Shown piece after piece: positions 30,994 through 55,415 of a stretch of DNA of 64,000 nucleotides. The stretch covers positions 25,780 to 89,779 of the forward strand of contig CAWJMT010000002.1 of the NCBI GenBank assembly GCA_963844035.1. The letters are read 5' to 3'. The notes below the pieces were generated by a model. The model searched no databases. It was not told where the DNA came from and saw only the letters and a list, made by a program, of their open reading frames with translations. Source of the DNA: an uncultured Gemmatimonadales bacterium (GTDB taxonomy: Bacteria > Gemmatimonadota > Gemmatimonadetes > Gemmatimonadales > GWC2-71-9). Each line of letters opens with the position of its first letter. The first letter of the stretch is position 1. Position numbers and translations under genes: made by a program.

Positions 30994-31866
30994 TCGAGCA
31001 CCATTTCACGGTTGACGTGGAGGAGTACTTCCAGGTCTCGGCGTTTGAGCCGCACGTGGCGCGGGCCGACTGGGGCACGTTCGAGAGCCGTGTGGTCCCG
31101 CCCATGCTCAGGCTCCTCGACCTGCTCGAGCGCCACAACGCACGCGGGACATTCTTCGTGCTGGGATGGGTCGCCGAGCGACACGCGTCCCTGGTCAAGG
31201 CGATTGCCGCCGCGGGTCATGAGGTGGCCTCCCATGGTTGGGATCATCGCCGGATCACACAGCAAACGCCCGATCAGCTGCGGGAGTCGGTCAGGCGTAC
31301 GAAGGACGCGCTCGAAGCGATCGTCGGCGTACCGGTAGTCGGGTTCCGGGCCCCAAGCTTTTCCATCGTGCCGGGCCGAGAGTGGGCGTTGGACGTGCTC
31401 TTGGAGGAAGGCTACCTGTACGACTCGAGCCTGTTTCCCATCGCGCGTCGGGGTTATGGCTATCCTGACAGCCCGCGGGATCCGCACGTACAGACGGTCG
31501 CCCGCGGGAGCCCTGGTCGAGCTCCCGCCCACGACGTTGCGTCGGGGCGGGGTGACCCTCCCCGCTGCCGGCGGCGCATACTTTCGTCTGTTTCCCTACG
31601 CGCTTGCCCGGGCGGCGTTCCGCGACTCCGCCGACCGGGGTGTCTCGGGGACGTTCTACATCCATCCCTGGGAGCTGGACCCGGATCAGCCGCGATTGCC
31701 GGTGTCGTGGACAGCGCAGGCGCGGCACTACGGCGGCCTGACGCGCACCATGCCGCGGCTCGAGCGACTCCTGACCGAGTTCCGCTTTAACTCCGTGCAT
31801 GGGGCCGGCACCGTGGCCCGGCTGCTCCCACGCATGGCCAACGCGCTCGAGCCCAGCCACCCGTGA
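30990..31866 (+). CDS. polysaccharide deacetylase, PEP-CTERM-locus subfamily-like; frameshift near 31490
   Basis: HHFTVDVEEYFQVSAFEPHV...TFFVLGWVAERHASLVKAIAAAGHEVASHGWDH, then ...YFRLFPYALA...FYIHPWELDPDQP in ORF 31456..31866. Confidence 0.85.
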
Positions 31867-32891
31867 CCCTTACTGTCGAGCGGTTCTCCGGTCTCGGCGC
31901 CGAGTGGGACGCGTTCGTCCGCCTTGCGGAGGGAGGCACGCATTGCCACCTCTGGGGGTGGAAGGCGGTCATCGAGCGGGTGCTCGGTCACGAGTGCCAC
32001 TACCTGGCGGCTCGCTCTCCCGAGGGCAGGCTCGTGGGCGTGCTTCCGCTCGTCTGCGTGTCCAGCCGGTTGTTCGGGTCCTACCTCGTCTCGATGCCCT
32101 TTCTGAATTCCGGGGGCGCGCTGGGTAGCGACCGGGCGGTGCAGGCGCTGGTTGCTCGAGCTATCGAGCTCGCCAGGACCGACGGCGTCGAGTTGCTGGA
32201 AATCCGCAGCCGCACCCCGCTTCCGCTGGATCTTCCCGTGTCACATCGCAAGATCACAGTGGTCCGGGACCTCGTGCCCGGCGACCCGGTCCGGGTGTGG
32301 GAAAGCCTGCGGGCAAAGGTGCGCAGTCAAATCCGTCGCCCGCAGAAAGAGGGCATTCAGGTGCGGTTCGGCCCCGATCAGGTCGGCGCCTTCTTCCGGG
32401 TGTTCTCGCAGCACATGCGTGACCTCGGCACCCCGACGCAGCCCCGGCGCTTGTTCGACGCCTTGGTCGATGCGTTTCCGGCCGACGTCTGGTTCGGATG
32501 CGCGTATGACGGCACCCGCCCGATTGCGGCAGGGTGCGGGTTTCGCTGGAATGGTGAGTTCGAGATGACCTGGGCCTCGTCGCTGGCGCGGTACAACGCC
32601 ATCGCTCCCAACATGCTGCTCTACTGGGCGTTCATGGAGCGGGCCGCTGCGGATCGCCTTGAGGTCTTCAACTTCGGCCGCTGCACACCGGGCAGCGGCA
32701 CGCACCGGTTCAAGCAACAGTGGGGTGGACGGGACGTGCCCCTGTGGTGGTATCAGCGCACGGCGGGGCAACGCGCGGCAACCCCTTCGCCCGACGACAA
32801 AGCCTTCGCGTGGGGGCCGCGCATGTGGAAGCGGCTGCCGCTGCCCATCGCCAACATGCTGGGACCGCGCGTCGTGCGCCTGATCCCGTGA
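31863..32891 (+). CDS. FemAB-family protein (PEP-CTERM system-associated type)
   Basis: Intact 342 aa, directly after the deacetylase as in exosortase-type loci: HCHLWGWKAVIERVLGHE...GVLPL...LFGSYLVSMPFLNSGG. Confidence 0.8.
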   Translation: MTLTVERFSGLGAEWDAFVRLAEGGTHCHLWGWKAVIERVLGHECHYLAARSPEGRLVGVLPLVCVSSRLFGSYLVSMPFLNSGGALGSDRAVQALVARAIELARTDGVELLEIRSRTPLPLDLPVSHRKITVVRDLVPGDPVRVWESLRAKVRSQIRRPQKEGIQVRFGPDQVGAFFRVFSQHMRDLGTPTQPRRLFDALVDAFPADVWFGCAYDGTRPIAAGCGFRWNGEFEMTWASSLARYNAIAPNMLLYWAFMERAAADRLEVFNFGRCTPGSGTHRFKQQWGGRDVPLWWYQRTAGQRAATPSPDDKAFAWGPRMWKRLPLPIANMLGPRVVRLIP

Positions 32892-34099
32892 TGCTCCGGC
32901 ACCAGCTTCCCGCCTACTCGCCGCTCAGCGGCGCCTCCCTCGGGCGCGCGCTCCTGCATGCGTTCGGCCCCGGGATGGATGGACAGGCTGAGCTGACCGC
33001 GATGCTCGAGCGGGAATATCGCGCCGATCGGGCTCTGCTCCTTGGAAGCGGCACCCAGGCCCTGCAGGTCGCCATCGCGCTCGCCATGCGGCACGTGGGC
33101 GATGCGGTCGTTGCGCTTCCGGCGTTCAGCTGTTTTGACGTGGCGGCCGCGGCTGTAGGCGCGCACGCGAGGATCAAGTTCTACGATCTCGACCCGACCA
33201 CTCTGGCGCCCGACCCGCGGTCGTTGGAGAGCGCGCTGGCGAGGGGCGCTCGCGTTGCGGTCATCGCCCCGCTGTACGGTTTCCCGGTCGATTGGGACGC
33301 GCTCGCAGACTTGCTCGTCCGATACGGCGCCATGGCCGTCGAAGATGCGGCACAAGGCGATCACGCCGAATGGCGGGGCCGGAAGCTGGGGAGTCTCGGC
33401 CCGATCAGCGTGTTGAGCTTCGGGCGAGGGAAAGGGTGGACGGGCGGCAGTGGCGGGGCGCTCCTCATCCGGGATCAGGCACCGTGGCAGGGGTTGCGAG
33501 ACACACTGATGGAGATGTCGAGCGGGACAGGGACGTCTCGCTGAGGTTCGCGTCCTCGGCGCGCTGGCGGCCCAGTGGGCGCTCGGCCGGCCGGAGTGTT
33601 ACGCGATCCCGCGCGCGGTGCCGCGGCTCCAATTGGGCGAGACCGTATATCACGATCCCGTGCCGCCGCGAGGGATGACCCGTGCGGCCTCCGCGTGTCT
33701 CGCGGCCAACCGGCCAGCGGCCGCGGAGGAGGCGGCGACGCGGCGCGCGACGGCGCTGGCGTTGCTTGCAGCGATCGGCTCCGGACGCGGGTGCGAGCCA
33801 TTCGGCCGCTCGCGGGGGCGACACCCGGATTCTGCGGTTGCCGCTGCGGCTCGCGGTGGCTTTCGGGGGTTTGCGACCCCTGCGACCGCAGGCCGCCTGG
33901 GGATTGCGCCGAGCTACCCGTCGGTGCTCGGCGCCATCCCGGAGGTGCGTCCATGGATGGATGACGCAACGTCCCAGCTGGCCGGGAAGCGACGGAGCTG
34001 GTCCGCACGCTCTGCACGGTGCCGACGCACTCCCTTGTCACATTGGGAGAGCGTGCCCAGTTGATCCGCGAGATCGAAGCCTATGAGCAGCGGACATGA
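32891..34099 (+). CDS. DegT/DnrJ/EryC1/StrS family aminotransferase; at least 2 frameshifts
   Basis: GSGTQALQVAI, PAFSCFDVAAA, VIAPLYGFPVDWDAL, AVEDAAQG, VLSFGRGKGWTGGSGGALL. The C-terminus (...LVTLGERAQLIREIEAYEQRT) is in another frame. Confidence 0.8.
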
Positions 34100-34273
34100 G
34101 GTCGAGCCTTCCGGCTCCCCATGGCCGCGTGACCTGGCACCAATGTTGCCGTCCACCCTGCGACGGCCGAACCTGGAAGGAGCGGAGTCTATGGCACCGC
34201 GGATTGAGCGTGGCACGAGCGTGACACAAGGGCACGAAGTGAGGGCGCCGCAGCGCGCCGCCGCGAGGCCGGC

Positions 34274-35767
34274 GTGACCGCGTCCGTAGCTCCGTCCCCA
34301 CCAATGAGCCCGCGCGTTCGCACGCCGGGACGGCGCCTGGTCGTGCTCAGCTATCACTTTCCGCCCGACGGCACCGTCGGCGGATTGCGCTGGTCGGGTT
34401 TCACCAAGTACCTGAGCGCGATGGGGTGGACCTGCTGGGTGATCACCGCGGCTCCAGCTCCGGATCCCGGGACCTTGCCCGCGGGTGTCATCGTACGATC
34501 GTACCCCCGGCGCCGCACGCTGAATGATTTGTACAACTGGCTGCGGCGGCCTCGGGGCCAGCGAGAGGCAGCGTTGCGATCCGGCACGGACGAGGCGGCG
34601 CCGCCACCACCCAGGAAGCCGAATGTGCTTCGGGCGTGTATCGACCGGCTGCGGTTGGAAGTCTCCATGCTGCTGTTCCTCCCCGACGAGGGCCGCGGGT
34701 GGATGCTGCGCGCCGCCTGGCACGCGCGGCGGTTGATCGTGCAGGTGCGTCCCGATGCGATCGTGAGCAGTGGTCCGCCGCACTCAGCCCACGTCGCCGC
34801 TTGGCTGGCGACCCGGGGCACGCAAACGCGATGGCTTATGGATCTTCGGGATCCTTGGGTCAGCCCTATCCCCTCGTGGTGGAGCTCCCATGCGAAGAAC
34901 CAAAGCCACGTGACGAGGTGGTTGAACCACGCGCTGGAGCGCCTCGCCATCAAGTCCGCGAGCGGCGTGGTGTGCACCAACCCTGAGCTTGTCGAGGCGA
35001 TGGCGGTTCGGTATCCCGGCGCCACGTTCGACTGGGTATCGAACGGAGTGGATCGGGATCTCCTGCCTCCTCGCACGCAGGCCCGCTTTCCCGGCTTCGG
35101 GATCGTGTACGCGGGCTCTCTATATGGAGCACACGACCTCGGACCAGTGCTCACCGCCCTCCGAGCCTTCCTGGATCGCAATCCGCGCGCCGGGGAGCAG
35201 GGGACTACGCTGCGGCTCGCGGGAACGATCGAGCCGTCCCACGGCGAGCGGTTGCGGCGTCAGATTCGGGCGCTGCGTCTCGAGGCCCACGTGGAGTTTC
35301 TCGGCATCTTGAAGCGGGAGGCAGCGCTCCAGCTCGTCGCGCGGTCCCGGCTTGTGATTGTGTTGGCGCAGACCTTGGCGCACCAGGTGCCGGCGAAACT
35401 GTTCGAGTCCGTGGCCATGGAGATCCCGACCCTCGTCTTCTGTTCCGCCGGGAGCGCGGCGCACTCGGCCGCGGCGCGCGCGGGTGCTACTGCGGTGCGG
35501 TCGGAGGACCTTCAGCGGACCGTCCACGCGATGGAGGACGCCTGGTTGGGACGCACGCCGGTGCCTCAGCCCACGACGCCGATCGACCACGGTCAATTGG
35601 CAGCCCAGGTGGAGCAGCTGATCGCCCCGCACGGTCTGCGGACGACGGCCCTGGGTCTGAGATTGCGGGAGAGTGGTATCGCCGCATTCCGCCGTCGTCA
35701 GGTCGGCGTCGAGCGACCCCCGGAGCCGCCGGAAGGCGACACGGTGTGCTGTAGCAGGTCTACGTAG
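34274..35767 (+). CDS. glycosyltransferase family 4 (group 1); exact ends uncertain
   Basis: Intact ORF: RRLVVLSYHFPPDGTVGGLRW...; C-terminal GT1 fold (FGIVYAGSLYG...LRLAG...KLFESVAMEIPTLVF). Confidence 0.75.
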   Translation: MTASVAPSPPMSPRVRTPGRRLVVLSYHFPPDGTVGGLRWSGFTKYLSAMGWTCWVITAAPAPDPGTLPAGVIVRSYPRRRTLNDLYNWLRRPRGQREAALRSGTDEAAPPPPRKPNVLRACIDRLRLEVSMLLFLPDEGRGWMLRAAWHARRLIVQVRPDAIVSSGPPHSAHVAAWLATRGTQTRWLMDLRDPWVSPIPSWWSSHAKNQSHVTRWLNHALERLAIKSASGVVCTNPELVEAMAVRYPGATFDWVSNGVDRDLLPPRTQARFPGFGIVYAGSLYGAHDLGPVLTALRAFLDRNPRAGEQGTTLRLAGTIEPSHGERLRRQIRALRLEAHVEFLGILKREAALQLVARSRLVIVLAQTLAHQVPAKLFESVAMEIPTLVFCSAGSAAHSAAARAGATAVRSEDLQRTVHAMEDAWLGRTPVPQPTTPIDHGQLAAQVEQLIAPHGLRTTALGLRLRESGIAAFRRRQVGVERPPEPPEGDTVCCSRST

Positions 35768-36870
35768 ATGCTCGCGTAGTGCGCCACCATGTGCGAGATG
35801 TCGTACAGGGCGGCGGCGCGGGCGGCGGCCTGTGCGCCGAGCCGCTGCGCCGCTTCAGGGTCCTGGAGCAGGCGATCGAGGGCACCCGCCAGTGCCTCGG
35901 AATTGCCCGGCTCGACCAAGAGTCCCGCTGCGCCTTCGCCCAACGCCGTAGGTACCTCGCCGACCCTCGTGGCGATAATTGGGCGGCTCGCGAACATTGC
36001 TTCGAGGAGCGCGAGGGGCAGACCCTCGGACAACGACGGCATCACGAAAATGTCCGCGCTGCTCAGTAAGTTCGGGACATCAGCACGCAAACCCAGGAAG
36101 TGGACTCGGTCGGCGATGTGGTGCTCGCGCGCCCACGCTTGGAGCTCGTCCGCGAGCTCTCCGCGGCCCGCTAGCGCAAGGTGCACGTTGGGATACCGGT
36201 CGGACAGCGAGGCGAGCGCGGCGAGCAGCACGCGGTGGCCTTTGACGGGATAGAGATTGCCGACCGCGAGCAGGAGTCGTTGGTCGGGTGCGAGTCCCAG
36301 CTCCGCGCGCAGCGATGAGTCCGCGTGGGCGCGCGGTCGCACACCGTTTGCGACTACGGTGATACGAGAGAGGCGGACCCGGAGATCAGTGCTCAAGCTG
36401 CCGGCCAATCGCTGCGAGACGGCGACGAGGCTCCCGCTGGCCGCGACGGCCAGCCGCATCGCGAGTCGACGACGCAGCGCCGCGGCGTAGTAGCGGCTGC
36501 CATGCATGGTGATCACATGCGGGATACCCGCACGCCAGGACGCCCATGCGCCGTAAACGGCCATCGAGAATTCGTGGCTGTGGGCGATGGCCGCGCGGTG
36601 GCGTCGCAATGTCGCGGCAAGCCATTTCGCGCAGGTGGGGGACACCGGTCGCTCCAGCCGAAAATGCTCGACCACCACCCCCGTCCCGCTCAGCTCGCGC
36701 TCGAGCCAACCTTCCCCATTCGCGGGAAGAATCACCAGGTTCTCGGTTCCCGCGGCCTGGAGCCTGGTCGCGATGTTCGCCACCGTTCGCTCCGCGCCGC
36801 CTGGCCCGTCGGTCTCGATCAGATGCGCGATCGAGAGCCCGCGCAGCCGCTCGAGGGGCGCCGCCGTCAT
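35698..36870 (-). CDS. glycosyltransferase family 4
   Basis: Start MTAAPLERL at 36870 (ATGA overlap with the upstream gene). GGAERTV, LLAVGNLYPVKGH, VMPSLSEGLPLALLEAMFASRPIIATRVGEVP. Confidence 0.85.
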   Translation of the reverse strand: MTAAPLERLRGLSIAHLIETDGPGGAERTVANIATRLQAAGTENLVILPANGEGWLERELSGTGVVVEHFRLERPVSPTCAKWLAATLRRHRAAIAHSHEFSMAVYGAWASWRAGIPHVITMHGSRYYAAALRRRLAMRLAVAASGSLVAVSQRLAGSLSTDLRVRLSRITVVANGVRPRAHADSSLRAELGLAPDQRLLLAVGNLYPVKGHRVLLAALASLSDRYPNVHLALAGRGELADELQAWAREHHIADRVHFLGLRADVPNLLSSADIFVMPSLSEGLPLALLEAMFASRPIIATRVGEVPTALGEGAAGLLVEPGNSEALAGALDRLLQDPEAAQRLGAQAAARAAALYDISHMVAHYASIYVDLLQHTVSPSGGSGGRSTPT

Positions 36871-37783
36871 CCGCGGACCGCCCGGTGGGGGCTCCAACCT
36901 GCGATCCAGGTTTGGAATGCTGCGTCGGAAATGTGTGCGGGGATATTCACGCGCGGCGCGGCCCAGGGATCGGTCTCGTGAGTCGTCAGATGCGCATCCA
37001 GGGTCAACGCCATTGTGTAGCCCGCCGCGCGGGCGGCGTCGCGCACGCGCTGGTCCCACAATCCATATGGATAGGCGAAGAACTCCGCGAGGACGCCACT
37101 GCGGTCGGCGAGCGTCTCACGGCTGTCGACCATCTCGCTGCGCAGTTCCGCGTCATTCAAACGCGGCAGGGCGCGATGGGTAGCGGTGTGGACACCCAGA
37201 TCGAGGCCGCCACGAACCGCCTTGCGAATGACGTCCCAAGTGGCGGGCAGCGTCAAGGGTGGGCGGGAGGGGGCGGGCGTGACGCCGAGGTCCTGCAGGA
37301 TCAGCCGACCCGTCGCCACGCAGATCGCCGAGCCAGCGCGCGGACGATGGGCCGCCGGCCCGCCGGGCGGCGTCCGGGTGATCCCACCAAAAGGGCGCGG
37401 GGGCCGATGCGCGCGCTCCGTCGACCGACAAACACCGTGGCGGGCAGGCCGCAACTCCGCCAGGACGGGCCACGCGTATTCGAACACGCCGCGGTACGCG
37501 TCGTCGAAGGTGATGGCCGCCAGCCTCCGCAGCGACTTCCCGGCGCGCATCCGGGCGATCAATTCACGCAGCGGAACGACGGAGTAGCGCGCAGCGAGAC
37601 AACATCATCTGCTCCCGGAACCGGGACTGGGTGATGTGGAGCCCGGTGTTGGCTGAGCTCGGGCGGCTCCTCGGCAACGACGTTGTGATAGCACAGGACG
37701 ACCGCAGCGTTGCGAAACTGCCGAACGGCCGCGGGCAGGCCAAGGGCTCGCAGTCCGGCGTAGTATAAGGAAGCGGCGTTCAT
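36867..37783 (-). CDS. polysaccharide deacetylase (NodB homology); several frameshifts
   Basis: The N-terminus (MNAASLYYAGLRALG...VLCYHNV) is in ORF 37559..38695. ITFDDAYRGVFEYAWPVL and FAYPYGLWD are in ORF 36867..37562. Confidence 0.7.
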
Positions 37784-37867
37784 GCGAGAGAATCTACATT
37801 CAACTCGCGCCGGCTCGCGACGCGCGCCGGTGTGGCGGGAGACGTGCATGGCTGAGGGCTTGGGGAC

Positions 37868-39109
37868 GTGCCGATGAACGCTAGACCGCGGGTCATGGTG
37901 CTCTCGCAGTGTCTGCCGTATCCCCCGCAGAGCGGGGTTCGCACCCGGACGTTCAATATTCTTCGACAGCTCCAGCGCGAGTTCGACGTTACCGTGATCC
38001 CATTCTCTCGAGCCGTGCACCAGCCATCGGCTGCCGATCGGGAGGTTGGACGTGAAATGCTGGCGCGGGTGGTGACAGAGATCGCCGTTCCCGTGCCGAT
38101 CCCGAGCGAGCAGTCGGTAGCGCGGCGTGTGTGGGACCACCTGCGCAGCGTGCTGACGCACCGGCCGTACACCTCCTATGAGTACCGCAGTGGTGACTTC
38201 CGCCGGCAGCTGCGCGCGCTGCGGCGGCGCAGCCCACCGCAGCTGGTGCATCTGGACAGCTTCGATCTCACCGATTGGCTCGAGGAGCTGCCGGACGTTC
38301 CAGTGGCCTGTACCCACCACGACATCGAGCCGCTGTTGCTGAGGCTGCGGGCGACGCGGATGTCGCGGCTGGGAGTCGGTCCTTACTTGCGGCATCAAGC
38401 CGACCTGATGGAACAGCTCATGCGGGTGGCGTGTCCGGGATTCGATTTGAACGTCATGATGTCCGAATTGGACGCCGGCCGCCTCCGGGAAATCGCTCCG
38501 CAGTCGAAGACGCACGTGGCCCAGAACGGGGTGGACACGGATTACTTCCGTCCCATGCCGGAGGTACCGCCAATCCCGGGGCGTGTGCTGTTTCTCGGGC
38601 CCACGTATCAGTTCGCGAACCGGGACGCGGTCGAGCACCTGGTGGATGACATCCTCCCGGAGGTTCGATCCTGTTGCCCGACCGCGTCCGTCCAACTGGT
38701 GGGGCGGAACGCCGACGCGGACCGGAGGCGTTGGGAGAGCGTTGCGGGCGTCCGCTGCGCAGGGCAGGTGGAGGATGTGCGCCCGTTCCTGGCTGAGGCG
38801 CCATGCGTCGTCGTGCCCATTCGAGTGGGAGGCGGAACGCGTCTGAAGATCCTCGATGCCTGGGCGATGGGCAAAGCGGTGGTGTCAACCGCTACGGGGT
38901 GCGAGGGCCTGGATGTGGTGGATGGCGAGAACATTCTCATTCGCGACACTCCGCGATCATTCGCGGACGCCGTCTGCAACGTGCTGGAGGATCGCGCGCT
39001 ACGGGAGCGGCTGGGGTCGAATGCCCGCGCGACGGTGAGTGCGAAATACGCCTGGACCCGGGTGGGTCAGGAGCTGTGTGCCGCCTACCGGGGACTCGTG
39101 TCGGTCTGA
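37868..39109 (+). CDS. glycosyltransferase family 4 (resembles the PEP-CTERM/EpsH1-associated sugar transferase type)
   Basis: Intact 413 aa: RVMVLSQCLPYPPQSGVRTRTFNILRQL...; C-terminal VVPIRVGGGTRLKILDAWAMGKAVVST. Confidence 0.8.
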   Translation: MPMNARPRVMVLSQCLPYPPQSGVRTRTFNILRQLQREFDVTVIPFSRAVHQPSAADREVGREMLARVVTEIAVPVPIPSEQSVARRVWDHLRSVLTHRPYTSYEYRSGDFRRQLRALRRRSPPQLVHLDSFDLTDWLEELPDVPVACTHHDIEPLLLRLRATRMSRLGVGPYLRHQADLMEQLMRVACPGFDLNVMMSELDAGRLREIAPQSKTHVAQNGVDTDYFRPMPEVPPIPGRVLFLGPTYQFANRDAVEHLVDDILPEVRSCCPTASVQLVGRNADADRRRWESVAGVRCAGQVEDVRPFLAEAPCVVVPIRVGGGTRLKILDAWAMGKAVVSTATGCEGLDVVDGENILIRDTPRSFADAVCNVLEDRALRERLGSNARATVSAKYAWTRVGQELCAAYRGLVSV

Positions 39110-39250: not shown

Positions 39251-39340
39251 CGCTGCTCAGAGCAAAGCCGCTGAAAGGCGGTGACGCAGAGCCACGGGAC
39301 TACCGCGAGAGGCTTCGCCACGTCCGCCGGGCCGCCAGCG
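39251..39340 (+). promoter_or_regulatory. c-di-GMP-I (GEMM-I)-like riboswitch aptamer, copy 1
   Basis: CGCUGCUCAGAGCAAAGCCGCUGAAAGGCGGUGACGCAGAGCCACGGGACUACCGCGAG..UUCGCCACGUCCGCCGGGCCGCCAGCG. Has the GCAAA, GNRA-capped hairpin, GACGCAxAGCC, CGGG.CUA and GCCGGGCyGCC hallmarks. Confidence 0.75.
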
Positions 39341-39381
39341 ATCGACGAATGGGTCGACGTGGTGGGCCGGCGTTTTCATTT
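39327..39381 (+). terminator. intrinsic terminator/expression platform of riboswitch copy 1
   Basis: CCGGGCCGCCA (39327-37) pairs with UGGUGGGCCGG (39360-70) and is followed by CGUUUUCAUUU. The 5-prime arm overlaps the aptamer 3-prime end. Confidence 0.6.
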
Positions 39382-39401
39382 ATGGAGGGCGGAGCTAGAC
39401 G

Positions 39402-41908
39402 ATGACGTTCAAGTACAAGCTGTCGTGCCGCCTGGCTCTGCTCAGAGATGCCGCTGCCGCTGCTCGCGGCGGCCGCCCTGGTCGCATGCGAGATCCCCGT
39501 CGTCAGCAGTGATCCAGCTGTCTCAGTCGTCCAAGTCGTCGTCGTCCCCGAAAGCCTCAGTCTCGACGCAGCTCAACAACAGAAGTTCGCAGCCTATGGC
39601 CGTTCCGCGAGCGGTGACAGCTCCGCCGTCACCGTGACCTGGAGTGCGACCGGGGGCAGCATTACGTCCGACGGGATGTTCGCCGCCGACACGGCCGCCG
39701 GGGACTTCCTGGTGTCGGCGACCAACGCCGCGCTCAAGCTCTCGGGCTCGTCGCGGGTGCGCATCCGGCCGCGTCCGGTCGCGTCGGTGGCCGTGACGCC
39801 GGCATCGGCGAGTGTGGTGTGGCGCAGACGATCCAGCTCGCCGCCACCCCGCGCGATGCGAACGGCAACGACGCTGTCGGGCCGGGTGGTGACGTGGGGG
39901 AGCAGCAACGCGGCCGTCGCGACGGTGAGCGCGAGTGGGCTCGTGACCGGCGTCGCGGCCGGTGCGGCGACGATTACCGCCACGAGCGAGGGCAAGAGCG
40001 CCACGTGCGGCGGTGACGGTCACGCCGGCGCCGGTGGCGTCGGTGACCGTGAGCCCGACACTGGCAAGCGTGCCGGTGGGGCAGACGGTGCAGCTCACCG
40101 CGACGCCGCGGGATGCGAACGGGAACGCCCTGACGGGGCGGGTCGTGAGCTGGGCGAGCAACAACACGGGGGTGGCGACGGTGAGCGGGAGCGGGCTCGT
40201 GACCCCGGTCGCGGCCGGCTCGGCGATCATCACGGCGACGAGCGAGGGCAAGAACGGCACGGCCGGGATCACGGTGACGCTGACGCCGGCGGCCGTGGCG
40301 TCGGTGAGCGTGAGTCCGGCGTCGGCGAATGTGATCGCGGGGCAGACCGTGCAGCTCACCGCGACGCCGCGGGATGCGAGCGGCAACGCGCTGTCGGGCG
40401 CGTCGTGACCTGGAGCAGCAGCAACAGCGCCGTGGCGACGGTGAGTGGCAGCGGGCTCGTGACGGGCGTGGGCGCCGGGTCCGGCGACGATCACGGCGAC
40501 GAGCGAGGGTCAGAGCGGCACGGCGGCGATCACCGTGCGCCGGCGCCAGCGCCGGTGGCGTCGGTGAGCGTGAGTCCGGCGCCCGGCGAGCGTGACGGCC
40601 GGGCAGACGGTGCAGCTCACGGCGACGCCGCGGGATGCGAGCGGCAATGCCCTCACGGGACGCGTCGTGACGTGGGGCAGCAGCAACACGCGCTGTCGCG
40701 ACGGTGAACGGCAGCGGGCTGGTGAGCGGCGTCGCGGCCGGGTCGGCGACGATCACCGCGACGAGCGAGGGAAAGAGCGGCACGTCCCTGGTGACCGTGA
40801 CTCCGGTGCCGGTGGCGACGGTGAGCGTCAGCCCGGCCGCGCCGAGCGTGGCGGCGGGGCAAACGGTGCAGCTCACCGCGACGCCGCGGGACGCGAACGG
40901 GAACGCGCTCGACGGGCGGGTCGTGACCTGGGGGAGCAGCAACACGGCGCGTCGCTACGGTGAACGGCACGGGGCTTGTGACGGGGGTCGCGGCGGGGTC
41001 GGCGACGGTGACCGCTACCAGTGAAGGCAAGAGTGGCAGCGCCGCCGTGACGGTGACGGCGACGTCGGGTGGCGGGACCGTGCTGTTCGAGGAGCACTTC
41101 GAGGACAACTCGTTCGCGTCGCGCGGCTGGTATGACAACACCAGCCCGCCCACCACGACCGCGGAGCACGCGCCCGGCAGCAGTACGCGCGCCTTGCAGC
41201 TGCACTTCACCCAAGGCGCCACGACTGCGGTGTCCGGTGGCTCGGCGCGGCATTTGTTCACCGCCTCGTCCACGGTCTACATCAGTTATTGGGTGAAATA
41301 CAGCACCAACTGGGTCGGCTCGGGCGAGGCGTATCACCCGCACGAGATCATGCTCCTGAGCGATCAGGACGGGGCCTATGACGGTCCGTCGACCAGCTGG
41401 CTCGCCGCCTATGTCGAGCACAACTACCAGAACGGCGGCATTCCGCGCCTGGCGTTGCAAGACAGCAAGGCCATCAACACGATCCTTCGGCACGCCGCCG
41501 TTCAACTTGAGCGGCGTTACCGAAAACCGCTCGACCTGCGGCTGCAACGGCGTCGTGGAACCGAACGTCGTCACGAGCTGCTTCAGCTTTCCGCCCTGGT
41601 ACAACGACAAAGAGATCATCTCGCCGACGAAGATTGCGCCGACGGCGTGGCGGAATCAGTGGATCCACGTGGAGGCCTACTTCCAGCTGAACTCGGTCGT
41701 CGGCGGCATCGGCGTGCCCGACGGCGTGATGCAGTACTGGTTCAACGGGACGCTGATGATCGACCGGCACGACATCCTGATGCGCACCGGCGCGCGCCCG
41801 ACCCTGAAGTTCAACCAGTTCCTGATCGCGGCGTACATCGGCGACGGGTCGCCGGTGGACCAGTACATGTGGATTGACGACCTCACGGTGGCCACGGCGA
41901 AGCCGTAG
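39402..41908 (+). CDS. lipoprotein with about 6 Big_2 (bacterial Ig-like) repeats and a C-terminal jelly-roll polysaccharide-lyase-like domain (type A); at least 10 apparent frameshifts
   Basis: MTFKYKLSCRLALLR... then ...LVACEIP lipobox. Repeats follow the pattern VSPAsAsV.aGQTVQLTATPRDAnGNALtGRVVTWgSSNtaVATVsgSGLVTGVAAGSATITATSEGKSGTAaVTV. The C-terminus runs LFEEHFEDNSFASRGWYDN...YHPHEIMLLSDQDG...WIHVEAYFQLNS...QYWFNGTLMIDRHD...WIDDLTVA. Confidence 0.75.
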
Positions 41909-41955: not shown

Positions 41956-42045
41956 CGCTGCTCAGAGCAAAACCGCCGAAAGGCGGTGACGCAGAGCCAC
42001 GGGACTACGGCGAGTTCGCTCGCTACGTCCGCCGGGCCGCCAGCG
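41956..42045 (+). promoter_or_regulatory. c-di-GMP-I (GEMM-I)-like riboswitch aptamer, copy 2
   Basis: CGCUGCUCAGAGCAAAACCGCCGAAAGGCGGUGACGCAGAGCCACGGGACUACGGCGAGUUCGCUCGCUACGUCCGCCGGGCCGCCAGCG. Confidence 0.75.
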
Positions 42046-42083
42046 ATCCCCCGGGGTCGATACTGGCGGCCCGTTCGTTTTGG
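42034..42083 (+). terminator. intrinsic terminator/expression platform of riboswitch copy 2
   Basis: GGGCCGCCAG (42034-43) is perfectly complementary to CUGGCGGCCC (42063-72) and is followed by GUUCGUUUUGG. Confidence 0.65.
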
Positions 42084-42115: not shown

Positions 42116-44714
42116 ATGACATTCCTGCACAAGCTGGCACAGCGCCTGGCTCGACTGAAGACGGCCCTCATCGTGGGTGTCGTCGCGGCGATCGCGTGCG
42201 AGATACCGTTGCCGGTGGACCCATCAGGCACCATCGCGATGCTACTCGTCTCGCCCAAGGCGGTGACCACCCGCGCCGGGCAGATGGCGGATTTCGTGGT
42301 CGTCGGTCTGACCACCAGCGGTGACACGGCCAGCGTCCCCGTGACCTGGAGTGTCACCGGGGGGACGATGGTCGACACGAGCACGCAACGGCGGCAAGCA
42401 CTTCGGCAAGTACAAGGCGCCAATGTCCCCAGGGCGTTACAAGGTCGTGGCCCAGTCCGGCGGCGTCGCGGACTCCGCAGTCGTCGACGTGAGCGCTGTG
42501 CCCGTGGCGACGGTGAGCGTCAGTCCCGCGTCGGCCAGTGCGACGGTGGGACAGACGGTGCAGTTGACGGCGACGACGCGCGACTCCACCGGTGCCTCGC
42601 TGAGCGGCCGAATTGTGACGTGGGCGAGCAGCAACTCCGGTGTGGCGACGGTGAGCGCCAGCGGGTTGGTGACCGGCGTCGCGGCCGGCGCAGCGACGAT
42701 TACCGCCACGAGCGAGGGCAAGAGCGGAACCGCGGCGGTGACCATCACGCCGCCGCCGGTGGCGTCGGTGATCGTGAGCCCGGCGGCCGTGAGCGCCGCC
42801 CTAGGCCAGACGGCCCAGTTCACGGTCACGGCTGGAAGATGCGAGCGGGAACGTCCTGACGGGGCGGGCGGTGAGCTGGACGAGCAGCAACACGGGGGTG
42901 GCGACGGTGAGCGGTAGCGGGCTCGTGACCCCGGTCGCGGCCGGCTTGGCGATCATCACGGCGACGAGCGAGGGCAAGAACGGCACGGCGGGGATCACGG
43001 TGACGCTGACGCCGGCGGCGGTGGCGTCGGTGAGCGTGAGCCCGGCGTCCGCGAATGTGATCGCGGGGCAGACGCTGCAGCTCACCGCGACGGTGCGGGA
43101 TGCGAGCGGGAACGTGCTGCTAGGGCGCGTGGTGACGTGGGCCAGCGACGACGCCGGAACGGCGACGGTGAATGGCAGCGGGGTGGTGACGGGCGTTGAC
43201 GCGGGCACGGCGACGATTACGGCGACGAGCGAAGGCCAGAGCGGCTCGGCGGCCGTCACGGTCACCGTACCGGTGGCCACGGTGAGCGTGAGTCCCGCGT
43301 CCGCGAGCGTGATCGCGGGGCAGACGGTGCAGCTGACCGCGACGCCGCGCGATGCGAACGGGAACGTGCTGACGGGGCGCGTGGTGACGTGGGCCAGCAG
43401 CAACACCGGGCGGGCGACGGTGAATGGCAGTGGGCTCGTGACGGGCGTGAGCACCGGGACGGTGACGATCACGGCCACGAGCGAGGGGAAGAGCGGGACG
43501 GCGGCGCTGACGGTGACGCCGGTGCCAGTCGCCACCGTGACGGTCAGCCCGGCGACGCCCAGCGTGTCGGTCGGGCAGATGGTGCAGCTGACGGCCACGA
43601 CCAGGGATGGCAACGGCAACGTGTTGACCGGCCGCGTCATCACGTGGTCGAGCAACGCCCTTGGGACCGCCACGGTGAGCGGCAGCGGGCTGGTGACGGG
43701 TGTCGCTGCCGGCCCGGTCACGATCACGGCGACGAGTGAGGGGCAGAGTGGCTCGTCGGCCGTCACCGTCACGCCGCCGGCGCCCGTCGCCACGGTGAGC
43801 CTGAACCCGGCGACGCCCAGCGTGGCGGCGGGGCAGACGGTGCAGCTGACCGCGACACTCAGGGATGCCCTCGGCAACCCGCTGACCGGCCGCGTCATCA
43901 CGTGGTCGAGCAGCGCTGTGGGGACCGCGACGGTGAGCGGCAGCGGGTTGGTGACGGGCGTCGCCGTCGGGTTGGCGACGATCACGGCGACGAGCGAAGG
44001 CCGGAGCGGCACGGCCGCGGTGACGGTGGTGACCCCGCCGCCGCCCGGCACCACGTGGCCGAACGAGCCGGCGGGCTTTACGACCGTCACCGATTTCGGC
44101 TTCAACAATTTCAGCTCGGGCGGCTGGCAGACGAATTCCGGGCCGACCATCGCGACGGACTCAGTGCTCCGATCTCGCCGTCCACCGTCGCCCAGTGGTT
44201 CTATCGGCAGGGGTTTGGGGCCGGCGCATCGCCGGGCACGGTGTTTAACACCTCGTCGGTTGCGGGGGATCATTTCATCGGCTACGAGTTCAAGTACTCG
44301 AATCCCTACAGCAACCAGGCGGTGGGGACCAAGCAGTGGTATCCCTACAATCACGACCGCGGACTACTTCGTGCTCTTCAACAGTAGCTCGAAAATCCAG
44401 GTGGACCTGCAGGTGCCGGCGGCGCAGGGTGGGAGCTACAACCTGTACCGCCAATGTGAACGATCCGACGATCACGCTCGGCGTGTGGCACAAGTTTGAG
44501 ATGTACTTCAAGCGCTCGAGCAGTCCGACGACGGCGGATGGTATCGTGCGGTGGTGGATCGACGGGCAGCTGTGCGGCAACTACACGAACGTGAGGTGGC
44601 CGAGCACTGGGTTCGACGAATTGCGGTTCTGCGCCGACGTGGGGCGGGATCGGTGGCAGCGTGGCGTTCGACAGCTACTGGTGGGTCGATCACATCCACG
44701 TGAGCGAGCCGTAG
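42116..44714 (+). CDS. lipoprotein with about 7 Big_2 repeats and a C-terminal jelly-roll polysaccharide-lyase-like domain (type B); several frameshifts
   Basis: MTFLHKLAQRLARLK...AIACEIP lipobox. The 542-aa ORF 42871..44499 is almost all Big_2 repeats. The C-terminus runs WPNEPAGFTTVTDFGFNNFSSGGW...FKYSNPYSNQAVGTKQWYP...VWHKFEMYFKRSS..GIVRWWIDGQL...WVDHIHVSEP. Confidence 0.75.
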
Positions 44715-44956: not shown

Positions 44957-45044
44957 AGCTGACAAGAGCAAATCCGTCGAAAGACGGTGACGCAGAGCTA
45001 CGGGACTAACGCGAGCTTCTCGCCACGTCCGCCGGGCCGCCAGC
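44957..45044 (+). promoter_or_regulatory. c-di-GMP-I (GEMM-I)-like riboswitch aptamer, copy 3 (first of a tandem pair)
   Basis: AGCUGACAAGAGCAAAUCCGUCGAAAGACGGUGACGCAGAGCUACGGGACUAACGCGAGCUUCUCGCCACGUCCGCCGGGCCGCCAGC. Confidence 0.72.
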
Positions 45045-45085
45045 ACATCGAGAAGTCATCGAGCTGGCGGCCGTTTCGTTTGTGG
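45035..45085 (+). terminator. intrinsic terminator/expression platform of riboswitch copy 3
   Basis: GGCCGCCAGC (45035-44) is perfectly complementary to GCUGGCGGCC (45063-72) and is followed by GUUUCGUUUGUGG. Confidence 0.65.
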
Positions 45086-45162
45086 AAGTAGTGGTGCTGT
45101 TCTGTTGTTCTGTTGTTCTGTCGCTAACACGTCTGTTCGGAAGGATCGCCCCTCCCCAAGAG

Positions 45163-45262
45163 GAGTGCGACAAGGGCATAGCCGGCGAAAGCCGGTGACG
45201 CAAAGCCCCGAGGCTACCGCGCGGATCAGCCGCGTCACGCCAGTCGAGCTGCCGAACCTCAC
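45163..45262 (+). promoter_or_regulatory. c-di-GMP-I (GEMM-I)-like riboswitch aptamer, copy 4 (divergent; second of the tandem pair; no obvious terminator)
   Basis: GGGCAUAGCCGGCGAAAGCCGGUGACGCAAAGCCCCGAGGCUACCGCGCGGAUCAGCCGCGUCACGCCAGUCGAGCUGCC. Ends about 24 nt before the ATG at 45286, next to the GAGGGG Shine-Dalgarno sequence. Confidence 0.55.
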
Positions 45263-45285
45263 TCTCCAGTCTCGAGGGGCGTACA

Positions 45286-48200
45286 ATGACGTCCACAAGT
45301 CGGTTGTCGATCCGACTGGCCATGGCCAGTCGCGCAACGGTAGTACTCAGCGCCGTCGCCAGCATGGCATGCGGTTTGGGGGATCCCTCAAGCAGCGTGT
45401 CCAGCAGGCCGACGTTCGCCACGCCTGGTGCAGCACCAGCCACGGTCTTGTTACAGGAATCCTTTGAGGATAACGCGTTTGCGTCGCGCGGCTGGTACGA
45501 CAATGCAAACCTAGCGACCACGACGGCCCAGCACGTCCCCGGGAGTACGCGCGCCCTGGAAGCTCACTTCACCCCCGGTGCGACCACGCCCACCTGGGGC
45601 GGCGCGGCGCGCCACCTGTTCACGCCGACCCCTACGCTGTATGTCAGCTATTGGGTCAAGTACAGCACCAATTGGGTGGGCTCGGGCCGCTCGTACCACC
45701 CGCACGAGTTCCTGGTGCTGAGCGATCAGGACGGCGATTGGGATGGCCCGTCGAACAACTGGCTGACGTTCTATGTCGAGCACAACTACCAGAACGGCGG
45801 CATCCCGCGGTTGGCGCTTGCAGGACAACAAGGCGATCAACACGACCTTGGGTGCCCTGCCACTGAACCTGGTCGAGCGCGACGGAGAATCGCTCGACCG
45901 CAGGGTGCAACGGCGTGGTGGAGCGAATGTCGTCACGACCTGCTTCAACATGCCGCCCTGGTACAACGACAAGGAGATACCGCCGCCCAGGTCGCGTTCC
46001 AGCCCAACCCTGGTCCAGGTTACAAGAGGCGACTGGAATCATGTCGAAGTCTATGCTCAACTGAACTCAGTGTCGGCGGGGATCGGCCAGGCCGACGGTG
46101 TATTGCAGTATTGGTTCAACGGCACGCTCGTGATCGACCGGCACGACATGCTGTTCCGCACTGGCGCGCGTCCCAATATCCAATTCCGCCAGTTCCTGAT
46201 CGCGCCGTACATCGGCGATGGCTCGCCGGTCGATCAGTACGCCTGGTTCGACGACCTCACCGTCGCCTCGGGGCAGATCGCCGGCGTCCCGAGTCCGTCG
46301 GTCTCGTTGGTGACGATCAATCCCGCCGTAGTCAGCGTAGTCGTCGTGCGGCACGACCCAGCTGGCGGCGACGGTCAATGATTCGGCCGGAAGCGCATTG
46401 GCCGGGCGTGCTTCCACGTGGGTGAGCAGTGCGCCCGCGGTTGCGACGGTGAGCGCGAGCGGGCTCGTGACGGGGATCGCCGCCGGGTCGGCACGATCAC
46501 GGCGACGAGCGAGGGGAAGAGTGCGACGGCGAGCCTCACGGCGACCAGCACCGCCACGAACCCGGGAACGGTGACCGACCTGAAGGTCGCGAGCGTGACG
46601 AACAACTCGGTGAGACGCTCACGTTCACCGAGGTGAACGACGGCAGCGGCAATCCGGCGAGTTACGACATCCGCGGGGCGGCCGGGACATTCGCGTGGGG
46701 GCTCGGCGGTCTCGGTATCGCAGGGCACGTGTGCGACGCCCGTGGCCGGGACGGCGATTGGCGCGGCGCGGAGCTGTACGCGCTCGGCTCGTCCCGCGAC
46801 CGCGTACCAGTTCCAGCTGGTGCCCTCCGGGACGCTCAACGTGAACGCGACGTTCGGCGCGCTCTCGAACGTGGCGAGTGGGACGACCGCTACGGGACCC
46901 GGGGCACCGCTGCCGGCGCTGGTGGCGACCGTGAGCGTGACTCCCGCCGCGGCAAACGTCACCGTTGGGTAGGGTCCCGTCAACTCGCGGCGACACCGGC
47001 CCAGCGGGGGCAGCGTGCTGACCGGCCGCACGGTCACGTGGGCGAGCAGTGCGCCCGGTGTGGCGACGGTGGACGCGGTGGCCGGTTACAGGACTCACGG
47101 CCCGCGCAGCACCATCACGGCCACGAGTGAAGGGAAGAGCGGGAGCGCCGCGATCGCCGTCGCCAGCGTCCCTGTGGCCACGGTGACGTGTGACTCCCTC
47201 GAGCGGGAGTGTCATGGTGGGGAGCACGCAGCAGTTCACGGCGACTCTCAAGGATGCGGGCGGCGTGACGCTCACCGGGCGGACGGTTGTGTGGGCGAGT
47301 AGTACACCCGCGGTTGCGACGGTGAGCGCGAGCGGGCTCGTGACAGGGATCGCCGCCGGGTCGACCACGATCACGGCGACGACCGAAGGGAAGAGTGCGA
47401 CGGCGAGCATAACGGTGACCAGCACCGCCACGAAACCGGGCGCGGTGACCGACCTGAAGGTCGCGAGCGTGACGAACAACTCGGTGACGCTCACGTTCAC
47501 CGAGGTGAACGACGGCAGCGGCAATCCGGCGAGTTACGACATCCGCGGGGCGGCCGGGACATTCGCGTGGTGGTCGGCGGTCTCGGTATCGCAGGGCACG
47601 TGTGCGGCGCCCGTGGCTGGCACGGCGATTGGGGCGAAGCGGAGTTGTACGGTGCTGGGGTTGAATGCGGCCACGGCCTACCAGTTTCAGCTGGTGGCAT
47701 TACGGGGGACGCTCAACGTGAACGCGACGTTCGGCGCGTTGTCGAACGTGGCGAGTGGGACGACCGTGACGGGACCCGGGGTGCCTCCGCCTCCGCCTCC
47801 AGCGCCGGTGGCGACCGTGAGCGTGACTCCAGCCGCGGCGAGCGTCACGGTTGGTGGGGACGGTGGCGCTGGCGGTAGCTTCTACGCGATGCCAGCGGGA
47901 ACGTGCTCGTCGGGCCGCGGGGTCACGTGGTCGTCCAATGCGCTCAGCGTGGCGACCGTGAACGTGAACGGGCTCGCGACGGCGCTGGTCGTCGGCTCGG
48001 CCGCGATCACGGCGACGAGCGAAGGCCAGAGCGGCACGGCCGCAGTGACCGGGCTGACCTCACCACCTCCACCCGCGGGCGGGGCGTGGGCGAATGAGCC
48101 GACCGGCTTTACGACGGTGACCGATTTCGGCTTCGACAACTTCAGTTCGGGCGGCTGGCGTACGAATTCCGGGCCGACCATTACGACGGATGCGAGTGCC

Positions 48201-48749
48201 CTGGTGTCGCCGTCGAACGTGGCCCAGTGGCGGTATCCGCAGGGGTTCGCCGCCGGCGCCTCGCCTGGGGACGGTCTACTACGGTCCGACCACGCCGGTC
48301 ACGGATCATTTCATTGCCTATGACTTCAAGTACTCGAATCCCTACAGCAACCAGGCGGTGGGGACCAAGCAGTGGTATCCCACAATGCGACGGCGGACTA
48401 CTTCGTGCTGTTCAACAGCAGCTCGAAGATCCAGGTGGACCTACAGGTGCCGGCGGCGCAGGGCGGGAGCTACAACCTGTATGCCAACGTGAACGATCCG
48501 ACGATTACGCTCGGTGTGTGGCACAAGTTTGAGATGTACTTCAAGCGCTCGAGCACTCCGACGACGGCGGATGGGATCGTGCGGTGGTGGATCGATGGGC
48601 AGTTGTGCGGCAGCTTCCACACGAACGTGAGATGGCCGAGCACTGGGTTCGACGAATTGCGGTTCTCACCGACGTGGGGAGGGTCGGCGGCAGCGTCGCG
48701 TTCAACAGCTTCTGGTGGGTCGATCACATTCACGTCAGCAAGGCCGTAG
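45286..48749 (+). CDS. large modular lipoprotein: N-terminal type-A lyase-like domain, Big_2 and FN3-like repeats, C-terminal type-B lyase-like domain; many frameshifts
   Basis: MTSTSRLSIRLAMASRATVVLSAVASMACG lipobox. The type-A domain (LQESFEDNAFASRGWYDN...YHPHEFLVLSDQDG...WFDDLTVA) is followed by Big_2 units, an FN3-like unit (PGTVTDLKVASVTNNSVTLTFTEVNDGSGNPASYDIR) present twice, and a type-B C-terminus (WANEPTGFTTVTDFGFDNFSSGGW...WVDHIHVS). Confidence 0.7.
46434..46965 (+). repeat. copy 1 of an about 870-bp-period internal duplication (Big_2 + FN3 module) in the 45286 gene
   Basis: Long near-identical nucleotide runs shared with 47307-47850, for example gtgagcgcgagcgggctcgtgac.gggatcgccgccgggtcg and ttcaccgaggtgaacgacggcagcggcaatccggcgagttacgacatccgcggggcggccgggacattcgcgtgg. 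Confidence 0.85.
47307..47850 (+). repeat. copy 2 of the internal duplication
   Basis: Offset of 873 nt from copy 1 (cccgcggttgcgacggtgagcgcgagcggg at 46434 and at 47307). Confidence 0.85.
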
Positions 48750-48884: not shown

Positions 48885-49701
48885 ATGAGCCGGTTTGTGT
48901 GGTCGCACTCGCTGCGGACGAGGGTATCCCTCGTTCTCTTGTCAGGCCTCGTGCCACTCGCATGCGGCCCGTCGTCAGACTCGGATGGACCGTGGCCGAA
49001 CGAGCCCCGGGGCTACACCGTGTACTCCGACTGGGCGATGGATTCCGCGCCCCCCGCCAACATCCCCGACGGGCCTATCCGGGCACCAGCACCTGGCGTG
49101 CCCGAACAGGTCTGCCGGGGGACCCCGACGGCTGGATCGAGCTCGCTGCGGATGCAAGCGGTGCTCATTCGGCCACGGCCGTGTATCAGTTCGCGTACCC
49201 GACCGGGATGCGAGACGGTGCGGGTCCCGGGCAGATTTGGAGTGCCCTCCCCAATTTCAACCGCGTGTACGTTGGCTTTTGGTGGAAGCTGTCCGATCCG
49301 TGGCAGTATCACGACGTCGGCGATAAGCTCGGCTATTTGTGGGCCGGCAGCAGCAACATGTTCCTGATTCAGTATGGCAGTCCCCCCAGTCTGCGCTGCG
49401 TATGTGCAGTTCTTCGGTCTCTCAATGGCTCTATCCGAACGTCAACTCCACGACCGTCACTCGCGGCGTGTGGCATCGCGTCGAGCTCTTCGCTCAGTAC
49501 ATCCCGGGACAGAAGGGTCGCGTGAAATGGTGGCTCGACGGCGTGCTGCAGGGGGACTACGGGACGTGGTCTGCCGGCGCCATCCCCGGACAGTTCACTG
49601 AGTTGTCGTTTCGATCCGGTGCTGGGGCGGTAACAGACGGCTCAGTGAAGGGCGAGACGGATTACTTCTGGTTCGACGACATCCACATCAGCGGCCAGTA
49701 A
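48885..49701 (+). CDS. stand-alone type-B lyase-like jelly-roll lipoprotein; at least 2 frameshifts
   Basis: MSRFVWSHSLRTRVSLVLLSGLVPLACG lipobox; GPWPNEPRGYTVYSDWAMD; YQFAYPTGMRDGAGPGQIW...FWWKLSDPW; VWHRVELFAQYIPGQKGRVKWWLDGVL...YFWFDDIHISGQ. Confidence 0.65.
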
Positions 49702-51047: not shown

Positions 51048-52060
51048 GGATGCCTTCCGTCGTGCGCAGGGGCGCTATCACGGGCGTCGGACGCACGGGC
51101 GCCTCTTGGACCGTCACCGCCTGCTCGGCCGCCGCCAGGCAGGCGGCGGAGAGCGTCGCATCGTAGCGACGCGGACGGAGGATTGCCCAGGCGGCAAGCG
51201 GCTCCGGCAAGCGGCCACGCGCGGCAGCCAGCGCGAAGCGCGCCATCTGCAGTGCCGTCGCGATCAGGCTGATCGGGACCCACACAAGACGGCTGCGCCA
51301 CCCACGTGCGCGGAACGCATCGCGCAGGTTTCCCCTCGTTGCGATCGTGGGATCGAAGAGATTCAACACCGGAGGCGCCTGCTCGAATTCCGTGGCACAC
51401 CACGCGATCACTCCCGCGGCGCGCCCGACCTCGCAGGCTGCGAACGGCAGGCCGGGCCGCCCGAGCGCCAGATGCCAGGGACCGAAGAGACGGCGTCCCA
51501 CCAGTCCCGGAAGCTCGATGTGCTCCCAGTCGATCAACGCGCCCGGCCGGACGATTCGCGCGTCGATTGCTCCCGCGCGTTGCGCCGCCGTGACGACCTG
51601 CTCGGCGGTGCACTTGCCCCACGTGTAGGGTCCGAGCGTCTCCGATTTGGAGGCCACGGGCGTCCGTTCGTCCTGCCGTTCCCACGGGCTGTGGGGCGGC
51701 TCGAGCACTGAGAGACTGCTCACCAGCACGAGGTGGCGAACCCGTGCGGCAGCCATCGCGCCTACAAGGTTCTTGGTGGCGTCAACGGTATTCTTGCGAT
51801 GAGCGTCGATACCAGCTGCAGTCTCGGCGGCTGCGTGAACGACCACCGCTACGCCGTTGAGCGCGCCATCCGGGTACGCCCCGACTGAGATCGCCGCGGA
51901 TCCACTCGGCGAGGTGCGGGTTGTCGGGCGTCTCCGAGCGCCCGATGCCGCGAACCCGCCAGCCGCGCCGCGCGAGCTGCGCGACGATCTCGCGGCCAAG
52001 AAATCCGCTGGCTCCTGTCACCAACGCGAGCGGACGCTCTGCCGTGCGGCCCGACTTTCG
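51037..52060 (-). CDS. NAD-dependent epimerase/dehydratase (SDR) domain, in frame with the upstream Gfo/Idh/MocA region; frameshift near 51850-51990
   Basis: Rossmann motif ALVTGASGFLGREIVAQLARRGWRVRGIGR in ORF 51782..52588. The rest (VVVHAAAE...YTWGKCTAE...) is in ORF 51037..51999. Confidence 0.7.
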
Positions 52061-53126: not shown

Positions 53127-53399
53127 GCTGCTCCTCGGGTTGATCGTTGGGATCCGGTGGCCGACTTCACGTCGCGCTCGCAACCATCACCGGCGCGCAC
53201 CGCACCATGCAAGACAGGCGCCACTCGTATGTCGTGACCCCGCAGGGGTTTCGCGTCATTTCTCAGGCTTTGGGGCTGGGAGTGTGGTAGGATTGCCACA
53301 CCTTCCTGCGCCCCGCTCCAGGCCCATGCTCCGGTACGGTAGGTGCAGTGGGGGGCGGGGCGTATACTGCTGTCGCACCGCGCAGTCCTGAGGAGGGAC

Positions 53400-55414: not shown

Positions 55415-55415
55415 C

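Follow-up and report, generated by a model that had tools for sequence, protein, structure and literature searches.

A GEMM-I aptamer for cyclic dinucleotides ahead of a surface-lipoprotein gene in an uncultured Gemmatimonadales bacterium, most likely a transcriptional ON switch

The DNA analysed here, a stretch of 64,000 nt from an uncultured Gemmatimonadales bacterium (the window), carries at nt 39251–39340 a region that is, with high probability, an aptamer of the GEMM-I type for cyclic dinucleotides. It belongs to the leader of a surface-lipoprotein gene and most likely works as a transcriptional ON switch, with a guanine-containing cyclic dinucleotide as the ligand. The region is a genuine member of the known c-di-GMP-I (GEMM-I) riboswitch family. 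A cmscan search of the whole window against Rfam 15 gave, at gathering thresholds, four matches, all to RF01051 (c-di-GMP-I) and all on the + strand; the one at nt 39251–39339 covered model positions 1–87 of 87 with 57.7 bits, the gathering score being 35 bits, and an E value of 1.2e-8 computed for 64 kb and 4227 families, far beyond chance. A c-di-GMP-I-like riboswitch had been proposed from a string of leader motifs, which is indeed present in the sequence, with a search against RF01051 as its test, and the score bears the proposal out. The annotation itself is routine, as a curated family was matched above threshold.

The aptamer (39251–39340, + strand, delimited by the Rfam match and by covariation) includes helix P1, formed by 39251–55 (CGCUG) with 39336–40 (CAGCG). 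The junction CUCAG, followed by an A at 39261, lies between P1 and P1a (39262–63 with 39286–87); the hairpin P1b (39267–82) is closed by a GAAA loop (39273–76); the conserved, intercalating A47 and then a G48, where the family consensus has A, occupy 39288–39289; and P2 (39291–39300 with 39322–33) encloses a small distal hairpin (39305–18). A C at 39335 aligns with C92 of Vc2, for which pairing with a guanine of the ligand has been described (PMC6140456, PMC5888326). The putative receptor region for the GAAA loop, in P2, reads CUACC...CACG, versus CUAAG...UAUG in the consensus.

The original prediction had likened this leader to the Vc2 aptamer of Vibrio cholerae (RF01051, PDB 3IRW; G20A mutant, PDB 3MUM and 4YB1). 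The same elements do occur in the same order, and the fold, the GAAA-capped hairpin, GACGCA, A47 and C92 are common to both; however, AGCAAA is aligned here to GGCAAA, that is, an A replaces G20. Wild-type Vc2 has G20 and A48, whereas the 39251 RNA has A20, G48, C82, C90, another distal hairpin and a terminator-based platform. The A at 39261 was placed at the G20 position through the Rfam consensus alignment (model position 11); the Vc2 numbering, by which it is position 20, was verified with C44, A47 and the tetraloop A33 as reference points, and fits A14, A41 and C75 of Gs1761 (PMC5888326, PMC6140456). In Vc2, c-di-GMP is recognised by G20 at the Hoogsteen face of one of its guanines and by pairing of its second guanine with C92, A47 being intercalated between the two (PMC6140456). 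Thus, A47 and C92 are retained at 39251, the G20 that favours c-di-GMP in discrimination is replaced, and the combination of A20 with C92, by which GEMM-Ib is defined (PMC6140456), is found. Because the Rfam family includes A20 members, the A at 39261 leaves membership of RF01051 intact, but c-di-GMP specificity cannot be presumed from that membership. With C92 and A47 canonical, the sequence points to a guanine-containing cyclic dinucleotide as the ligand.

An intrinsic terminator overlaps the 3′ end of the aptamer. The MFE fold of 39318–39384 is a 19-bp hairpin spanning 39325–39372 (+ strand) with −36.3 kcal/mol, followed by the U tract UUUUCAUUU at 39373–39381. Both arms of the GC-rich stem noted originally (39327–37 with 39360–70) fall within this hairpin, and the sharing of its 5′ arm with the aptamer, likewise anticipated, amounts to 16 nt (39325–39340) spanning position 82, G83, the 3′ strand of P2, C92 and the 3′ strand of P1. 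The MFE fold of the leader forms the terminator hairpin instead of P2 and P1; in terms of secondary structure only, that is, without tertiary structure or ligand, its energy is −63.7 kcal/mol versus −32.7 kcal/mol in the aptamer fold, making the terminator about 31 kcal/mol more stable. The leader at 39251 therefore has a GC-rich hairpin with a U tract that is mutually exclusive with the aptamer, as expected of an ON-type terminator platform. A simple terminator scanner missed the 39325–39372 hairpin because of its loop limit of 8 nt, although it did detect the equivalent hairpin behind a second aptamer (at 41956, described below). The Shine-Dalgarno sequence GGAGGG (39384–89) and the ATG at 39402 lie downstream as had been proposed (39384–39404, + strand), the encoded N-terminus being MTFKYKLSCRLALLRD. 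No promoter was detected upstream of 39251 by a sigma-70 scan.

In the mechanism proposed here, 39325–39340 would pair with 39355–39372 when the ligand is absent, forming the terminator ahead of the U tract, so that transcription would end before the ribosome-binding site. With the ligand bound, 39325–39340 would form part of P2, of the C92 pocket and of P1, the terminator would be blocked, and the polymerase would enter the gene. Since the terminator reuses the 3′ side of the aptamer, a bound aptamer would block termination, which predicts an ON switch; this direction is the most likely one in view of the terminator overlap and its conservation in relatives. The design resembles that of the GEMM-Ib riboswitches of Geobacter (Gs1761/pgcA, PDB 4YAZ; Gm0970), in which, as in the 39251 RNA, position 20 is an A (A14 in Gs1761) and position 92 a C (C75), and which occur in tandems and have surface-protein, pili and polysaccharide targets. 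The Geobacter switches are described as terminator-based ON switches, the logic having been shown experimentally for Geobacter pgcA; the same design is predicted here. The host phylum is another one, however, and the cGAMP selectivity described is that of the Geobacter aptamers. Also unlike the 39251 RNA, Gs1761 presumably has AAA at positions 47–49, U90 and a different P1a.

The leader had been assigned to a Big_2 lipoprotein gene, and such a gene does lie downstream, but the ATG at 39402 is out of frame with it. The ORF starting at this ATG ends after 37 codons, and the Big_2 lipoprotein ORF (39448–40707; Pfam Big_2, E 6e-18) lies in a different frame, in which, from 39448, the lipobox LVAC and the Big_2 repeats are encoded. 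The whole coding region (39448–41877, + strand), delimited by Pfam, by tblastn with the orthologue from a related locus (L160) and by three-frame translations, is frame-broken as sequenced, the tblastn homology to the L160 orthologue running through frames 1, 2, 3 and 1 with shifts at about 39445, 40010, 40700 and 40940. The product start from the ATG at 39402, MTFKYKLSCRLALLRD, matches MTFTYKLSCRLALIRD of the intact L160 orthologue and then leaves the frame; a match is also seen with lipoprotein N-termini encoded behind related aptamers. Gene 2, behind the second aptamer, has frame shifts near 42400 and 42830. Frame-broken Big_2 lipoprotein genes were thus observed behind aptamers at 39402–41877, 42116–44499 and 45286–48323, the breaks often lying within near-identical repeats, and they represent either repeat assembly errors or pseudogenes.

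Because the gene downstream is broken, the 39251 copy may regulate a dead gene. That it is a relic, an intact aptamer whose controlled gene has become a pseudogene, appears improbable: the four shifts in gene 1 and the similar frame breaks downstream of the second and the fourth aptamer are in its favour, but the FtsK, AlaRS and glycosyltransferase genes of the same window are full length, the breaks sit in near-identical Big_2 repeats, typical places for assembly error, and the aptamer and the terminator are without signs of decay, the aptamer scoring 104.7 bits with a model built from the four aptamers of the window, this copy among them. The intact L160 orthologue of gene 1 is a protein of 545 aa that has a lipobox and three Big_2-type repeats and ends in a Polysacc_lyase_14 domain (nt 1400–2143 of its locus; 36.7 bits, cut-off 27), which suggests that the regulated lipoproteins may be enzymes cleaving matrix polysaccharide; in the corresponding part of the window's own copy (40960–41877), the match to this domain was below significance.

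Three further aptamers (41956, 44957 and 45165) are situated within the same 6 kb on the + strand. The second, with A20, lies at 41956–42044 (Rfam 65.0 bits; folds and terminator scan), and its terminator at 42034–42072, identified by folding, and the U tract complete a unit of 41956–42082, followed by an ATG at 42116 with the product start MTFLHKLAQRLARLK. The third, also with A20, is the first unit of a tandem and lies at 44957–45044 (62.9 bits; folds), with a terminator at 45035–45072, a U tract and a whole unit of 44957–45083. The fourth, of a G20/A48 type, lies at 45165–45256 (66.6 bits; folds; unit 45165–45288), 208 nt from the third, start to start; it has the Shine-Dalgarno sequence GAGGGG at 45274–79 and the start codon ATG at 45286. 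In its MFE fold, the 3′ strand ACGCCAGUCGAG of the aptamer pairs with the Shine-Dalgarno-containing CUCGAGGGGCG; as the 3′ strand would thus mask the Shine-Dalgarno sequence, ligand binding should free it, predicting again an ON switch. The units stand in direct succession, 39251 before gene 1, 41956 before gene 2, and 44957 with 45165 before gene 4, and each of the successive units would gate the next. For the gene at 45286–46425, a look-up of the exact protein retrieved no entry. A short, pyrimidine-rich direct repeat, TGTTCTGT, is present in about three copies at 45098–45125, downstream of the third aptamer's terminator and ahead of the fourth aptamer. The array lies within a polysaccharide-type locus (31863–39109 and 49662–59871), in which glycosyltransferase genes (three of the GT4 and one of the GT2 type) are accompanied by genes for a FemAB-like acyltransferase, an asparagine synthase and an epimerase; an O-antigen-ligase-like protein encoded there is weakly similar to the exosortase-associated TIGR03097.

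Relatives of these aptamers were collected in two ways. The covariance model built from the four aptamers of the window was searched in the window and in 80 loci anchored on homologues of the glycosyltransferase encoded upstream (37868–39109), whose 80 best homologues came almost all from Gemmatimonadota MAGs, with a top identity of 57%, which places the window in an undescribed member of this phylum, in agreement with the distribution of the aptamer pattern. Forty aptamers were found, a sample selected through a neighbouring gene and not through riboswitch type and hence referred to as the unbiased set, and in several loci the aptamer follows the same glycosyltransferase gene by about 250 nt, as in the window. 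A pattern scan of a database in which each bacterial or archaeal species is represented by a single genome yielded 99 stretches with the exact pattern of the A20/G48 type, almost all from Gemmatimonadales or Longimicrobiales MAGs, and the covariance model found 111 aptamers in pattern-derived loci.

The fold is conserved among these relatives. In the unbiased 40, 93.7% of the cells of the Rfam structure were paired and 14 of the 22 pairs showed compensatory changes on both sides; none of 500 shuffles scored as high and slid controls were only 19–40% paired. Fitting of the alignment to the model biases it towards the structure. In P1, G-C was replaced by U-A and A-U in seven relatives. A47 and C92 (39288 and 39335 here) were invariant in all 142 distinct relatives having the position.

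These relatives fall into two classes. The unbiased set comprises 21 aptamers with A20/G48 (class A) and 19 with G20/A48 (class G), with no mixed types; in the window, the copies at 39251, 41956 and 44957 belong to class A and that at 45165 to class G. Class A reads CGCUGCUCAG-A20-GCAAA around position 20, GACGCA-G48-AGC at positions 47–49 and ...GCCGGGCC-GCC-AGC at the 3′ end, and its local context CAG-A20-GCAAA equals that of Vc2-G20A; class G reads (G/A)CAAn-G20-GCAAA, GACGCA-A48-AGC and ...AGUCGRGCY-RCC-GAA, respectively. G48 and C90 are invariant in class A, and both differ from the family consensus. The expression platforms also differ. A hairpin using the 3′ part of the aptamer as its 5′ arm, followed by a U-rich tract, was present in 86 of 108 distinct class A aptamers, the U tract starting a median of 27 nt past the aptamer end, and class G is followed within 16–29 nt by GGAGGGG and an ATG, often after a CCUC able to mask the Shine-Dalgarno sequence. 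Arrays within 350 nt were of the orders AG (13 cases, that at 44957/45165 among them), AAG (1), AA (5) and AAA (2), with no GA or GG, so that mixed tandems run A then G in 14 of 14, counts that are slightly inflated by a few loci sharing contigs.

G48 was considered as a pocket change coupled to A20, an association that is perfect within Gemmatimonadota but is weakened by aptamers elsewhere. The genome scan found 26 stretches with G20/G48 (L180–L205), in Virgibacillus, Clostridia, Deltaproteobacteria and two Gemmatimonadaceae MAGs, so G48 is tolerated in a G20 background too; pattern scans found at least 120 copies of A20/A48, mostly in Bacillota, against 99 of A20/G48, almost all in Gemmatimonadota. 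Thus, G48 is not exclusive to A20. Replacement of an A49-U90 pair by G48-C90 is likewise not compelled, since C90 occurs in half of the G20/A48 aptamers as well.

As to what A20 reads, PMC6140456 describes an A at this position as pairing with the adenine of 3′3′-cGAMP and as marking GEMM-Ib aptamers that bind cGAMP or are bispecific. According to PMC6140456, PMC8835794 and PMC6456294, the Kd values of Vc2-G20A are 53 nM for c-di-GMP and 120 nM for cGAMP, and those of Cbe 1-2, a natural A20 aptamer from Clostridium beijerinckii, are 30 nM and 463 nM, with binding through a protonated adenine; the Geobacter A20 aptamers are given there as 1200- to 1600-fold selective for cGAMP. A20 alone is therefore insufficient for selectivity, as Vc2-G20A and Cbe 1-2 bind both ligands. 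Judged from the precedents of Vc2-G20A, Cbe 1-2 and Gs1761, the 39251 aptamer should accept 3′3′-cGAMP as well as c-di-GMP. For the signal in the cell, c-di-GMP, bound with lower affinity, is given about an even chance, cGAMP a somewhat smaller one and any other compound a small one.

One reading makes the A20/G48 aptamers, including 39251–39340, dedicated 3′3′-cGAMP riboswitches, functionally GEMM-Ib, and leaves the sensing of c-di-GMP to the G20/A48 aptamers found in the same genomes; on this view, the 44957/45165 tandem would be an AND gate in which cGAMP permits transcription and c-di-GMP permits translation. This is a real possibility, though it falls below an even chance. A20 with C92 is the pair that reads cGAMP (PMC6140456), and the classes segregate without intermediates, occur together in one genome and in one leader, keep a fixed order in mixed tandems and use different platforms. 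In addition, pilM of another lineage is preceded by an A20/G48 aptamer, and pilMNOP belongs to the cGAMP regulon of Geobacter. On the other hand, Vc2-G20A and Cbe 1-2 bind c-di-GMP as well as or better than cGAMP, and since the two classes are two old lineages, their perfect segregation could be phylogenetic. The Hypr GGDEF enzymes that synthesise cGAMP have been described for Geobacter, myxobacteria "and others", and our literature search found no paper linking Gemmatimonadota with GEMM riboswitches or Hypr enzymes. Their specificity residue (Ser/Thr348) is located 24 residues before GG; a scan for the motif GG[DE]EF found no GGDEF protein of any kind in the window and 179 loci (1.87 Mb), which are parts of genomes only, and so has no bearing on a cGAMP synthase, whether a Hypr GGDEF or a DncV-like enzyme.

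Alternatively, both classes sense c-di-GMP, A20 being an adaptation of affinity and kinetics in which weaker and faster binding suits a co-transcriptional terminator and the tight G20 aptamer suits translational control at equilibrium; the chance of this being correct is just short of even. The replacement G20A lowers the affinity of Vc2 for c-di-GMP from picomolar to 53 nM (PMC6140456), terminators go with class A and Shine-Dalgarno sequestration with class G, and the targets, surface lipoproteins, Big_2 proteins and a possible polysaccharide lyase in a polysaccharide locus, are classical c-di-GMP targets. A20/A48 aptamers are, moreover, abundant in Bacillota and, like 39251, are natural A20 aptamers; the one tested example, Cbe 1-2, binds c-di-GMP tighter than cGAMP, although it has A48 and the 39251 subclass has G48. 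Against a role of A20 in tuning, reversion to G20, a single transition, was seen in none of 113 distinct class A sequences, most of which were retrieved with a pattern requiring A20, the unbiased ones numbering 21; and a few class A aptamers control a Shine-Dalgarno sequence and not a terminator, so that the type of platform does not fully explain A20. The broader claim that Gemmatimonadota carry a phylum-typical A20/G48 subclass of GEMM-I sensing 3′3′-cGAMP or another mixed cyclic dinucleotide, and not c-di-GMP, is regarded as unlikely.

Under either ligand, the window and about 150 related aptamers reveal a pattern across Gemmatimonadota, a poorly studied soil phylum, in which riboswitches for cyclic dinucleotides control many surface-lipoprotein genes, with several such genes per polysaccharide locus, through two aptamer types that differ at a ligand-reading nucleotide, have separate platforms and, when combined, keep to one order. 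If A20 reads cGAMP, riboswitch-based cGAMP signalling would extend to a new phylum, cGAMP would be a housekeeping second messenger beyond the group of Geobacter and myxobacteria, and the A-then-G tandems would be natural two-input gates, AND gates for two messengers, with cGAMP acting on transcription and c-di-GMP on translation of surface lipoproteins. If A20 reads c-di-GMP, the A20 type would be a clear natural case of one aptamer family tuned for kinetic versus equilibrium control.

The pilM-linked aptamers mentioned above are of the A20/G48 type and lie on low-GC contigs outside Gemmatimonadota, labelled Clostridia and Blastocatellia; in L040 the aptamer (4374–4462) precedes a PilM gene (PF11104, E 6e-75) at 4708–5772, and in L050 it is located at 1666–1754, an arrangement that recalls the cGAMP-controlled pilMNOP of Geobacter. 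Three-aptamer arrays with a period of 155–158 nt stand before a single lipoprotein gene in three loci, as AAA in L018 (1983–2385) and L072 (4761–5163) and as AAG in L012 (6984–7416). A conserved N-terminus, M-[PT]-F-[TK]-[FH]-K-L-S-x-R-L-A, precedes the hydrophobic stretch and the lipobox Cys in the lipoproteins encoded behind class A aptamers, at 39402–39449 and 42116–42160 in the window and in many other loci (e.g., L141, L131, L065, L071 and L022); it was matched by no Pfam or NCBIfam model and may be a lineage-specific extended signal peptide.
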